19,942 nucleotides of DNA. Origin: a virus. Lineage: Duplodnaviria; Heunggongvirae; Uroviricota; Caudoviricetes. Where the stretch lies: IMG/VR virus record IMGVR_UViG_2879748301_000007; one strand, 5' to 3'. The position numbers are program-made. Shown one piece after another: positions 6,001-9,000 of the stretch. Each line of letters starts with the position of its first letter. Within the stretch, counting starts at the first letter, position 1.

Positions 6001-9000
6001 GGCTCCTGAGCGCCATAAACAGGGCTTTACCTGTCAGCTCTTTTGTCATGCGCTCTCCCATGGCGTAGCCGACAATTTCGCACGTATAAACATCTTTGAT
6101 GCCAGCGAGGTACAACCATCCCTCCTGTGTGGCAACATACGTCAGGTCCGCCACCCAGACCTGATTTGGTGCTGTAGGAGCGAACGTCTGGTTCAGCAGA
6201 TTTGGCGCAACTGGCAGATTGTGGTTCGGGTTCGTAGTCGCTCTGAACTTGCGTTTCTGCTTACAGCGTAGCCTCAGCTCCTTACGAAGACGTGCCAGTC
6301 GGTCACGACCAACGATGATGCCATTCTCTGCCAGCTCCGTCTGGAGCCGCCGGGTTCCATATGTTTCGCGAGTGCGGATATGTGCCACCTTAATCTCCAG
6401 TTTTAACCGCTCATCACTTTGTTTTCTGTCTGAGGGTTCATGCTGTACCCAGTTGTAATAACCGCTCCTGGATACACCAAATACCTGACACATCGCTTCA
6501 ATGGGAAATTGTTGTCGCCATTGTTCGATTAACGCGTATTTTTCAGCGACTCCTGTGCAAAATACGCTGTTGCTTTTTTTAATATATCGCGCTCAAGGCG
6601 AGCTTCATTTAACGCCTTACGCAGTTGCAGAATTTCAGATTCCAGTTCAGCCACCGTGCGGGAACCAGGAGTACCGAGCCCTTTTCTGGCGGCGGTAACC
6701 CATTGTCCTAAAGTGCCTTCAGGAAGGGATAATCGGGAAGCGCCTTCACTGATCGAAAGTTGATTTTCAAGAACCGTTCTGACAGCTTCGGCTTTGAACT
6801 CTTTAGAGTAACGTTGGGTTTTTCTGCTCATTATTAGCTCCTTCTGATGCCATTTTATTTCAGGAAGGAGTGTCCGTTAAACTCAGGCTACCTCAAACCG
6901 CTCCTGGATACACCAAATACCTGACACATCGCTTCAATGGGAAATTGTTGTCGCCATTGTTCGATTAACGCGTATTTTTCAGCGACTCCTGTGCAAAATA
7001 CGCTGTTGATTTTTTTAATATATCGCGCTCAAGGCGAGCTTCATTTAACGCCTTACGCAGTTGCAGAATTTCAGATTCCAGTTCAGCCACCGTGCGGGAA
7101 CCAGGAGTACCGAGCCCTTTTCTGGCGGCGGTAACCCATTGTCCTAAAGTGCCTTCAGGAAGGGATAATCGGGAAGCGCCTTCACTGATCGAAAGTTGAT
7201 TTTCAAGAACCGTTCTGACAGCTTCGGCTTTGAACTCTTTAGAGTAACGTTGGGTTTTTCTGCTCATTATTAGCTCCTTCTGATGCCATTCTATTTCAGG
7301 AAGGAGTGTCCGTTAAACTCAGGCTACCTCAATATGCTTTCCTTCCAGGTAAACCTCGTGAACAATGTTATCAGTAGTTGCAACAGTGGCTTCATAATTG
7401 GTGTTCATGTTTTTCTCCTTAATTAAGGTTGAGCGAATCCCTGCCATTGCTGGCATAAATTCAGTTTCGAATAGTCAGTTAATTAAAGTTCGTGTGCCAT
7501 CTGGTCTTTTTCGGCGCAGATTTCACTACAATATTTGCGTTTCTTTTTCCTCATCATGGTTCCGTGCATGTAAATAAGTTCAGCAGTGTAAGCCTTATCA
7601 GGGCTTACTTGTCTGTCACACAGGCCATAAGCACAGGGAATTAAATCGGGATCACCTTTCTACTGGAGGTTTTTTTTGATTATCCATAACAAATTTTTGA
7701 TTCCGGTGTGTGTTATGGTCTGCTGAGGTGCAGAGGTAAAACAATAATCAAGCATAGGGTTCATATCCGTAGCTCCATTTTTATTTTAAAGAAAGTAATT
7801 GTTCCACAGTCATATTTTTAATTGCGCCCCGGTTAACAAGAGTCCATCCCTGTTTTTCCAGATAAAACCGGAAAGTCTCCAGGGTACAGACCAGTGCGCC
7901 ATCAGGAACGGTTTCGGTGAATTCGACATTGCCGAATTTGTCGAAGTGAACAACCAGAGTGCGACCATCACCCGGAATCATCTTGTCTGCAGGTGGGGTG
8001 TTATTCTGGCGCAGTTCGGCCTCCATGCGGTCGAACTCAGCAATGTAGGCTTCCTTGAATGCGGCGGCTTTTTTGCCAGTGAAGCCCATCACCAGGAAAA
8101 CGAAGCCGTTTTTGGTGATTTGGTACATTGGGCGTTTTTCGCCTTTGGCGTCGGTATAGGTGACGGGCTTAAAATTAAGCCGGTTAAACTCCGGCGAGCA
8201 TTCGAGAGTTTCGATCTTCTGAATAACGTTTTTGTGCATTTTCCGGAAGAACTCCGCAACCGCAACAGACGTAGTGACAGCGCGACCATTTTCGATGGTT
8301 GCGTCAGGGTGAGAAAGGGTAAGGATAGTAGCCATGATGGCAGCCTCGATAGTCAGTTTAAATGACTCACCACCAGAGGTAGCAATCTCATGGGTGGTGA
8401 GACGCACAGGGTTGCTACAACCGGTGACTACCGAAACCGGCCAGCCTTGCGGCTGCCCTGCACGCCCCACCATAATCTGAATGTGGCTGTGCTTGACGCA
8501 TAAAAAAACCGCCTGAGCGCGGTTATGCGCAGTAGTCATCGTCGGGGTAGCAATCCCGGCACCCGTTTTATGAGGTGCAGGTGCACTATAATTCCACCCG
8601 TTCTGGTTTTCAATAGCTACATTCAACATTTTCTCTTTCCTTTCATCACCGAAGTGAACTTTGTTGATGCGGTGCCTGGTGCCTCCAGGTGACGTTAACC
8701 AGTTAACAATTACAGTTGGCTTTCCCACCCAAACCAATAAGGACTAACATGACTTTTAACTGTGCCGCGTGCGCATAGCCGCATTCACCGCATCACAAAA
8801 TTCACTTTAAAAAGGGCGGACATCAGCCAGCAATTAAACCGATGCCGCCAACTGGTACTTCACACAGCAATGTCGTTATTTACAACCGGAAGCGCACTCC
8901 CACCATTTAAATTTCACAGACAAGACCGACTCTTTATGGATACCGGAAATGCGCCTTCGTGTTGTGCCCGGTTTTATTTCACCACTTCCGGGCTTTGGTG

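Follow-up and report, generated by a model that had tools for sequence, protein, structure and literature searches.

The open frame upstream of a prophage rha gene is probably an IsrK-C4-type RNA cassette rather than a protein domain

This work concerns a stretch of 19,942 nucleotides (nt) of Caudoviricetes DNA (IMG/VR record IMGVR_UViG_2879748301_000007), the whole of which is called the window here, and in particular the region upstream of its rha gene, which resembles RNA-based control regions described in several other phages. The immI region of phages P1 and P7, reportedly described by Citron and Schuster in 1990, is said to be arranged in the order a1b1, c4 (a'b'), a2b2, icd and ant. The c4 product is reportedly an antisense RNA that is cut from the transcript of its own target and carries two recognition elements, with copies of the target both up- and downstream, and the downstream copy is said to overlap the ribosome-binding site (RBS) of the first gene before the antirepressor. 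Excision of C4-type RNAs in P1 and P4 is RNase P dependent. The literature equates the RNAs IsrK and C4 with the seqA and CI RNAs of phage P4, where the seqA-CI-seqC transcript is described as untranslated (PMC4825925). The literature on P4 immunity, with work by Ghisotti, Deho and co-workers, gives premature transcription termination, not a translational block, as the outcome.

In Gifsy-1, the isrK promoter drives an isrK-orf45-anrP operon (Hershko-Shalev et al. 2016, PMC4825925). Translation of orf45 was shown by sequential peptide affinity (SPA) tagging and is needed for translation of anrP, and according to the authors it is the nucleotide sequence of orf45 that is conserved and not the peptide sequence (PMC4825925). 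A processed RNA, STnc1160, lies downstream of IsrK, both being known from experiment; activation was attributed to pairing of IsrK with the mRNA, and co-expression of STnc1160 brought no relief of toxicity (PMC4825925).

Cassettes of this IsrK-C4 kind 5' of antirepressor-type genes are already described, and the locus in the window is another copy of that switch, of which P1 c4, P4 CI, N15 CA and Gifsy-1 IsrK are well-studied examples. An earlier note on this DNA, made from its sequence alone, had drawn attention to the region for a different reason: the open reading frame (ORF) of rha is open for 134 codons upstream of its likely start, and this extension holds both a candidate start codon with a strong RBS and a terminator-like hairpin with a U-run. 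All of these features are present. Coordinates below are those of the window, and the features of the finding are all on its minus strand. The ORF at 8737..7781 has a TTG start and 318 amino acids (aa), and the 134 codons of the rha frame from TTG 8737 to the conserved ATG 8335 are free of stops, or 136 when counted to the preceding stop. Between 8336 and 8737 this frame (frame 0) contains no stop, compared with 7 and 11 for the two others on this strand. In a first-order Markov simulation, 134 stop-free codons in one given frame arise with a chance of ∼0.005, and the 81 stop-free codons from IsrK to the leader with a chance of ∼0.08; such a run is unusual at one locus, not genome-wide. We consider, with good confidence, that the extension is an RNA-based phage control cassette placed before rha and not an N-terminal protein domain. 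Its features, from rha upstream to the promoter, are as follows.

7781..8335, minus strand: rha, for a Rha-family putative antirepressor or regulator of 184 aa (Pfam Phage_pRha, E=3e-31)
8336..8389, minus strand: leader with the downstream C4 targets (complementarity to C4)
8355-8349, minus strand: a2, UGACUAU, in the leader; target for a', extending through the Shine-Dalgarno sequence GAGG at 8347-8344
8374-8366, minus strand: GGUGGUGAG, in the leader; complementary to the 3' strand of C4
8385-8379, minus strand: b2, UUGCUAC, in the leader; target copy for b'
8390..8477, minus strand: C4/CI-like antisense RNA (Rfam C4 RF01695, 75.7 bits, gathering score 45, full length 1-87)
8418-8412, minus strand: b', GUAGCAA, in the C4 linker; pairs with b1 and b2
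8432-8425, extendable to 8438, minus strand: a', GGUAGUCA, in the loop of C4 hairpin 2; pairs with a1 and a2
8336..8473, minus strand: orf45-like leader ORF from AUG 8473 in the 5' strand of C4; 46 codons, in frame into rha with no stop
8502..8578, minus strand: IsrK/SeqA-like small RNA (sRNA) (Rfam isrK RF01394, 61.5 bits, gathering score 50, full length 1-77)
Stem 8524-8507 and U-run 8508-8502, minus strand: intrinsic terminator of IsrK (terminator scan and 3' end of the isrK model)
8538-8532, minus strand: a1, UGACUAC, in the IsrK linker; target copy for a'
8553-8547, minus strand: b1, UUGCUAC, in the loop of IsrK hairpin 2; target copy for b'
8558-8543, minus strand: IsrK hairpin 2, whose loop holds b1 (minimum free energy (MFE) fold)
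8578-8559, minus strand: IsrK hairpin 1 (MFE fold, Rfam)
8585..8613, minus strand: sigma-70-like promoter TTGAAA-17-TATAGT (consensus scan, 10/12 positions match)

The two RNAs are matched head to tail above their gathering scores, and the same pair occurs in nine other phage loci, which include Gifsy-1, P4, N15 and lambdoid phages such as mEp460. The MFE fold of IsrK gives the same three hairpins, the last of which is the terminator that a consensus scan places with its stem at 8524..8507 and its U-run reaching 8502. After a spacer of 24 nt comes the C4-like RNA, laid out as a 17-bp closing stem, hairpin 1, hairpin 2 and a linker (fold energy −48.3 kcal/mol, z = −5.1), with a conserved ACCACC tail following the closing stem. 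The duplex predicted between the centre of C4 and the leader (8386..8337) has an energy of −38.7 kcal/mol, compared with −21.7 ± 3.7 for shuffles, and that between the centre of C4 and IsrK −36.7 kcal/mol; in each case 1 of 1000 shuffles reached the value. The predicted C4-leader duplex takes in the Shine-Dalgarno sequence GAGG of rha, which lies 8 nt 5' of ATG 8335, and in the MFE fold of the read-through RNA the pairing of a' with a2 and the Shine-Dalgarno sequence is formed in cis. The logic of the a1b1, a'b' and a2b2 elements, which is that of P1 c4 and of seqA, seqB and seqC in P4, identifies ATG 8335 as the regulated start.

Comparative data were collected in two ways. Sampling of loci by the translated stretch gave only relatives of 73-100% amino-acid identity, and this protein-anchored sample is biased to open frames; statistics on the reading frame were therefore taken from a scan with a frame-neutral DNA pattern of the C4 core, which retrieved 120 viral contigs. 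Pooled with the earlier loci these gave 121 unique modules, with 52 representatives at less than 90% identity. Covariation was counted on an alignment of 42 representatives at less than 90% identity, using the structure derived from Rfam with the b1:b' helix added. In this alignment, 94.5% of cells were paired compared with 36-47% in slid controls, 24 pairs had double-sided changes, and the observed values were reached by 0/500 shuffles. The C4 helices were 99-100% paired with compensatory changes in 5/5 pairs of hairpin 1, hairpin 1 of IsrK covaried in 5/7 pairs, and the intermolecular b1:b' helix was 97.6% paired with 6/7 pairs compensatory. The IsrK terminator helix was paired at 70%, probably reflecting misalignment.

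The recognition elements themselves vary widely, and their partners vary with them. The 7-nt b' element, present in 23 variants, is perfectly complementary to the leader in 52/52 representatives, and to the IsrK loop in every representative whose IsrK lay within the extracted segment. The a' element (49 variants) has complements in the IsrK linker and, directly beside the Shine-Dalgarno sequence, in the leader. The leader pairs b2 and a2 were not counted on the MAFFT alignment, in which some rows have the variable leader displaced by one column; a'/b' complementarity was assessed instead by an alignment-free comparison of cognate and non-cognate partners, giving means of 6.5-8.0 nt for cognate and 4.0-5.0 nt for non-cognate combinations. 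For a' beside the Shine-Dalgarno sequence the means were 8 nt and 4.5 nt, and the complement abuts or enters the Shine-Dalgarno sequence. The genes downstream of the cassette are unrelated to one another (Rha, ORF6N/AnrP, Icd-like, BRO-N, small P2-type proteins and others), and in 34/117 modules the downstream gene is out of frame with the AUG in C4.

Some loci hold more than one such module. One viral contig (IMGVR_UViG_2671181028_000005, our L118) carries three full IsrK-C4-leader modules in tandem at 9654..11212 on the minus strand, 656 nt apart, each followed by an ORF of ∼120 aa resembling the Rha N-terminus and each with a different b'/a' specificity (CTGCGAA, ACGCCAA and GTTCCAA); another locus, L165, has two modules 869 nt apart. 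These arrangements look like arrays of differently addressed switches. In phage phi191 (L093), a match to sRNA-Xcc1 (2523..2606, 79.6 bits) lies 3' of the IsrK-C4-rha unit and directly 5' of a second antirepressor gene, and a second, different RNA element may precede the antirepressor there.

Taken with the described systems, these data suggest how the cassette could work; most likely it gates translation of the Rha antirepressor. A constitutive-looking promoter at 8613..8585 would start transcription at ∼8578, and most transcripts would end at the terminator (8524..8502), giving the 77-nt IsrK/SeqA-like sRNA. Read-through RNA would contain the C4/CI-like RNA (8477..8390), probably excised, followed by the leader and rha. 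Whether in cis or excised, C4 is predicted to pair through b' and a' with b2 and a2, and since the a2 duplex covers the rha Shine-Dalgarno sequence, translation from AUG 8335 would be blocked. Homology, structure and covariation are the basis of the steps proposed so far; how C4 is processed, which way regulation runs, that IsrK acts as a decoy and what Rha does are what we infer beyond them. The b1 and a1 elements of IsrK are direct repeats of the leader sites, and bearing the same two target sequences IsrK could compete for C4, so that switching on might come about by this competition, by remodelling of the leader as in Gifsy-1, or by both. Activation would probably also involve ribosomes that start at AUG 8473, translate the 46-codon leader ORF and open the leader. 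The Rha protein would then act as an antirepressor-type regulator of the prophage.

The databases describe the same DNA differently. In an Escherichia coli locus 99.3% identical to this one, RefSeq, through the Prokaryotic Genome Annotation Pipeline (PGAP), has a 282-aa protein that starts at the equivalent of ATG 8629 (the coding sequence (CDS) of our L001 is 282 aa long), and equivalent proteins of 282-284 aa are annotated at 84-86% nucleotide identity. A search found 2834 database proteins; among the matches listed, 120/120 carry both PF09669 and PF10554, nearly all being 277-284 aa long, and long forms go by the names 'Rha family', 'transcriptional regulator' and 'Ash family'. Pfam PF10554 (Phage_ASH) scores 74.2 bits against a gathering score of 26 on residues 50-143 of the 318-aa ORF, corresponding to nt 8590..8309, and is matched nearly end to end. 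One paper on the Ash domain, as a preprint and in its published version, states that no function is known, and papers on Shiga toxin (Stx) phages discuss an 'Ash domain of unknown function'. Our literature searches returned no paper stating that PF10554 overlaps the IsrK and C4 RNAs.

The Ash profile spans from the -10 box and transcription start of isrK to nine codons into rha and thus tracks the RNA cassette, not any start codon. In P4, the profile falls on nt 874-1248 of our L086, which comprise seqA, the CI RNA and seqC together with the opening codons of the following gene. The same translation underlies several PHROG families, NCBIfam offers no model here, and among the homologues no start is conserved 5' of IsrK. 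Substitutions counted over 58 close relatives at the first, second and third codon positions number 17/13/15 for IsrK and 17/14/17 for C4, with no third-position excess, compared with 118/81/249 for rha. The ratio of nonsynonymous to synonymous polymorphism (pN/pS) is 0.64 in the extension (bootstrap 0.46-0.91), pointing to weak, not zero, constraint, and 0.29 (0.22-0.38) in rha. The Ash stretch accordingly lacks the codon-level purifying selection typical of a translated domain. An AlphaFold2 model of the 282-aa form had a mean predicted local distance difference test (pLDDT) score of 34.8 from an alignment of 30 close homologues that was too shallow, the Rha domain being low too.

The Rha protein itself is well recognised in its short form. 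Residues 21-105 of the 184-aa form (residues 155-239 of the 318-aa ORF) match PF09669 with 108 bits, TIGR02681 scores 113 bits, and the PHROG matches are annotated as transcriptional regulator or anti-repressor. The junction GAGGCTGCCATCATGGCTAC at the start of rha is kept in many homologues, even in P4. The first ∼10 codons of rha (8335..8300, MATILTLSHP) match the Icd-like gene of P4 at the DNA level (L086 1213..1245, MATTLTPSHP) and are common to other Icd-like genes as well, which makes this 5' coding end part of the mobile RNA cassette instead of the Rha family.

If the database model were right, ATG 8629 would start a 282-aa protein with a genuine N-terminal 'Ash' domain followed by Rha, and the RNA matches would be secondary. 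The strong RBS-like sequence 5' of this ATG, the annotation of the 282-aa form in relatives at 84-99% nucleotide identity, its pervasiveness among the 2834 proteins, the Pfam score of 74 bits, a frame that is open through IsrK in 40/45 Rha-linked modules, marginal stop avoidance over IsrK (below) and a pN/pS below 1 all fit such a protein. We nevertheless regard it as improbable: the profile follows the RNA cassette rather than a start codon and in P4 sits on a transcript described as untranslated, a functional-looking terminator and a promoter lie inside the ORF, and relatives are unrelated 5' of 8577 and differ in their starts. Moreover, IsrK and C4 are without third-position excess, NCBIfam is without a model, and variation falls where RNA-RNA specificity requires it and covaries with partners 100 nt off, a pattern not predicted by a protein domain. 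The sequence evidence indicates that what is called 'Ash' amounts essentially to the IsrK-C4-leader cassette in conceptual translation and not to a folded domain, and we conclude that the 282-aa model appears to have the wrong N-terminus. Among the possibilities raised earlier, a single longer Rha-domain protein fares worst: in addition to the internal terminator, the promoter 3' of ATG 8629 and the lack of codon periodicity in IsrK and C4, the regulated Shine-Dalgarno sequence is that of ATG 8335.

Upstream of the promoter lie three further features.

8627..8644, minus strand: RBS-like GAAAGGAAAGAGAAA with ATG 8629, the start of the RefSeq/PGAP 282-aa 'Rha family' protein
8660..8802, minus strand: non-coding spacer of the dicF-dicB type (partial match to Rfam STnc100 RF02076, 29.9 bits, gathering score 47)
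8814..8864, minus strand: divergent DicF-like RNA (Rfam DicF RF00039, 28.6 bits, gathering score 48, E=5e-4)

The candidate start noticed earlier is ATG 8629 with GAAAGGAAAGAGAAA before it. Its supposed position immediately downstream of a DicF-like RNA does not hold, as the gap is ∼185 nt and the DicF match is sub-threshold only; a terminator-like hairpin of this RNA was found by the consensus scan at 8846..8819. The spacer, which matches model positions 22-154 of the 206 of STnc100, provides the first ∼25 codons of the 'extension'. Of the 4654 E. coli genomes with a match to any part of the query, most match the segment 8900..8652, in an unannotated place in every example listed. Homology with Stx2a phages starts only at 8577, and relatives have unrelated sequence and no shared start 5' of this position (the stop of cII in mEp460, two CDSs in sal3 and none in the Stx2a phages). 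The -10 box of the promoter ends 7 nt 5' of position 1 of the Rfam isrK model, a geometry equal to that of Gifsy-1 (TATATT, 6 nt, then the isrK start). With the promoter at 8613..8585, ATG 8629 is therefore upstream of the cassette's own promoter, and it is probably not a functional start.

Annotations of the corresponding upstream part differ among relatives. In mEp460 (L088 1141..1500) the open frame runs ∼120 codons further 5', to the cII stop, and is annotated as a 383-aa antirepressor; in Salmonella phage 118970_sal3 (L090 1146..1469) the equivalent stretch is two overlapping CDSs. The part further upstream of the cassette amounts to ∼107 aa in these lambdoid phages. A 'DicB fragment' marked by PGAP 5' of rha in another locus (L002) was considered and rejected, being the same non-coding spacer with a translation unlike DicB.

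The position of the terminator invites a reading as classical attenuation, in which a leader peptide, begun at ATG 8629 or at some other start upstream, would control the terminator at 8524..8507 through the position of the ribosome. A terminator within an open frame 3' of an RBS and ATG, and alternative predicted folds of the read-through transcript, would be expected of such a system. We give it hardly any credence, since an sRNA promoted downstream of ATG 8629 has this terminator as its conserved 3' end and homologous cassettes are without a conserved upstream start; no run of regulatory codons and no antiterminator alternative was noticed, in the course of work that did not include a systematic search for them. 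Of the earlier suggestions, a leader with an attenuator still comes closest, in that the region does appear to be a regulatory leader; its terminator would belong to a separately promoted IsrK-like sRNA, which is followed by a C4-like RNA. By sequence, the cassette appears to be of the known IsrK/SeqA-C4/CI type and not a leader-peptide attenuator.

The RNA cassette does not account for everything, as there is a residual coding signal, mainly between the AUG in C4 and the ATG of rha. The leader ORF begins at AUG 8473, at +106 from 8578, where the first AUG of orf45 in Gifsy-1 is at +107. Nearly all Rha-linked modules have an offset of 138 or 141 nt from the AUG in C4 to the ATG of the gene, and the one here has 138 nt. 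Where stops and starts fall among homologous loci gives a divided answer: in the frame-neutral scan, 40/45 Rha-linked modules are in frame and open through C4 and IsrK, and the majority of those joined to other genes are either out of frame or closed, which argues that the cassette can do without the fusion. Shared ancestry confounds simple counts of stops in each frame. Counting of distinct codon states gave a modest depletion of stops (odds ratio 0.55; 0.53 with p=0.0095 from the C4 AUG onward). More informative was a column-permutation test on 18 diverged Rha-linked representatives, keeping column composition and using the other two frames as controls; permuting disrupts phylogenetic linkage, and the expected number of stops may be overestimated. 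From AUG 8473 to the rha ATG, frame 0 had 0 stops compared with 7.4 ± 1.7 expected, with 0/1000 permutations as low and the control frames unchanged. Stop avoidance lies mainly between these two codons and is marginal over IsrK.

The best reading of these observations is that the leader ORF would be translated as part of the switch, and that the Rha lineage has it fused in frame. An earlier idea of a small gene fused to rha survives in part: a fused ORF is supported from the C4 AUG at 8473, not from 8629, and nothing about it is DicB-like, as the Pfam scan of the 318-aa ORF found no DicB family and the stretch in translation does not resemble the intact DicB of L002. The leader ORF being kept open and in frame makes a 230-aa isoform of Rha plausible; a 282-aa isoform is not supported. 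As an addition to the model of an RNA cassette, translation from AUG 8473 into rha would yield this 230-aa isoform beside the 184-aa protein, and it would be the act of translation, more than the peptide, that opens the leader. On this proposal we are nearly evenly divided, leaning slightly against. It is favoured by the match of AUG 8473 to the first AUG of orf45, whose translation is needed for anrP in Gifsy-1, by the constant offset, by both measures of stop depletion, and by a pN/pS of 0.68 in the leader ORF, consistent with weak constraint on the leader peptide. It is opposed by the lack of a recognisable Shine-Dalgarno sequence before AUG 8473, by the location of this AUG inside the 17-bp C4 stem, by the out-of-frame or closed state of most modules with other genes, and by the possible overstatement of expected stops. 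A stronger claim, that in the Rha-linked branch the same ∼140 nt would be at once the gene of a C4-like antisense RNA, its own targets and the translated 5' part of a longer Rha from AUG 8473, is made only tentatively and seems to us rather doubtful. If true, regulator RNA, targets and coding sequence would overlap on one strand with the frame kept open by selection; the sequence would evolve under RNA-RNA specificity, and RNA constraints would have shaped the peptide known as the 'Ash domain'.

Several observations weigh against the reading of the extension as an RNA cassette, or against details of the mechanism proposed. Frame 0 is not neutral, with a pN/pS below 1 compared with ∼1.0 in the other two frames. 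Over the whole region, frame 0 of the 18 representatives had 2 stops compared with 13.0 ± 2.3 expected, and 0/1000 permutations were as low, whereas frames 1 and 2 had 86 and 55 compared with 90.5 and 55.0 expected; over IsrK and the spacer the count was 2 compared with 5.4 expected (25/1000), a marginal result. This avoidance of stops in Rha-linked modules makes some translation of the region likely. The a':a2 pairing in the window consists of only 6 Watson-Crick pairs and a G-U extension. A decoy role for IsrK is unproven, because the authors of the Gifsy-1 study explain activation by direct pairing of IsrK with the mRNA, and the finding there that extra STnc1160 did not relieve IsrK toxicity advises caution on a simple decoy model. 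Finally, the prophage is decayed, with IS2 upstream and IS600 downstream of the locus.

The last point raises the question of whether the open frame is a matter of chance in a decayed prophage whose cassette is no longer functional. The flanking insertion sequence (IS) elements and the truncated ydaE downstream are in keeping with this, as is the chance of ∼0.08 for the 81 stop-free codons over the cassette. We think it very unlikely all the same, as the cassette elements are all intact (promoter, terminator, the 7-nt b1 = b2 repeat, a1/a2 and the Shine-Dalgarno sequence), the sequence is 100% identical in three viral contigs and 99.3% identical in an E. coli chromosome, and the avoidance of stops is frame specific.

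A DicA-like repressor gene lies upstream of the cassette and rha, separated from them by an inserted IS2, and a truncated ydaE-like ORF (7764..7660) is closely followed by an IS600 copy. The window looks like a Shigella-type chromosome, the closest protein match being, among the matches listed, from Shigella flexneri, and an ORF at its start (1..1812, plus strand) is presumably, from its translation, an IpaH-like leucine-rich-repeat and E3-ligase gene. From their translations, the IS elements are taken to be four IS600-like copies or fragments, IS2, another member of the IS3 family and one of the IS66 family. The IS-dense region, identified from translations, comprises the following segments.

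2675..3831, strand not given per element: IS-dense segment
4844..6831, strand not given per element: IS-dense segment
6965..7267, strand not given per element: IS-dense segment
9132..10405, strand not given per element: IS-dense segment
16250..17454, strand not given per element: IS-dense segment
17994..19942, strand not given per element: IS-dense segment

Plus-strand ORFs that overlap the region of the cassette are of 48, 37 and 55 aa. Elsewhere in the window, a full-length Sok antitoxin RNA (15678..15853, plus strand; Rfam RF01794, 117 bits) indicates a putative hok/sok-type toxin-antitoxin locus in the same prophage region. Adjoining it, a 228-aa ORF with CxxC motifs (14934..15620, plus strand) is one that we take to be a QueH/DUF208-like candidate; it would be an unusual cargo gene if that identification is true.

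These results have consequences for annotation. PF10554, several PHROG families and the RefSeq start all sit on two Rfam RNA families, and recognition of the cassette gives the likely true start of rha and accounts for the internal terminator. The a' and b' elements, with their 49 and 23 variants, amount to a readable code of immunity specificity and might be used for typing prophages and predicting cross-talk between co-resident ones.

Compared with P1/P7 immI, the window has in common a match to the Rfam C4 family and target copies both up- and downstream. It differs in that the upstream target region is a separate, terminated sRNA (IsrK) and in having no separate icd; the Rfam c4-a1b1 model reaches only 18.9 bits in the window, and with tblastn the P1-like phages D6 and RCS47 gave weak matches only. 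P4 is alike in its pair of isrK-like and C4 RNAs, in the junction GGAGGCTGCCATCATGGCTAC of RBS and start, in the first ∼10 codons that follow, and in a long ORF across the region that is annotated as 'cI gene product' and matches Pfam Ash. Its IsrK-C4 spacer is ∼107 nt compared with 24 nt in the window, and its downstream gene is a small Icd-like or kil-type ORF instead of rha.

Gifsy-1 and the window have the same order of a promoter, a 77-nt IsrK with its terminator, a C4-like RNA with an AUG at about +106/107, a leader and an antirepressor-type gene; in both, the two RNAs are above the Rfam thresholds and the a/b repeats follow the same logic. The downstream gene in Gifsy-1 encodes an AnrP of the ORF6N/KilA-N type, whereas that in the window is of the Rha family, and the genomic positions differ, being after Q in Gifsy-1 and at the dicF-dicB position of a Qin/Rac-like prophage in the window. 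The specificity of b' is GUAGCAA in the window and ACGCCAA in Gifsy-1. In Gifsy-1, orf45 is out of frame, with an offset of 134 nt, and ends in AUGA at the start of anrP, whereas the ORF in the window is fused, with an offset of 138 nt. The statistical evidence that the Rha-linked branch keeps the leader ORF open and fused to rha is a small addition to the Gifsy-1 model.

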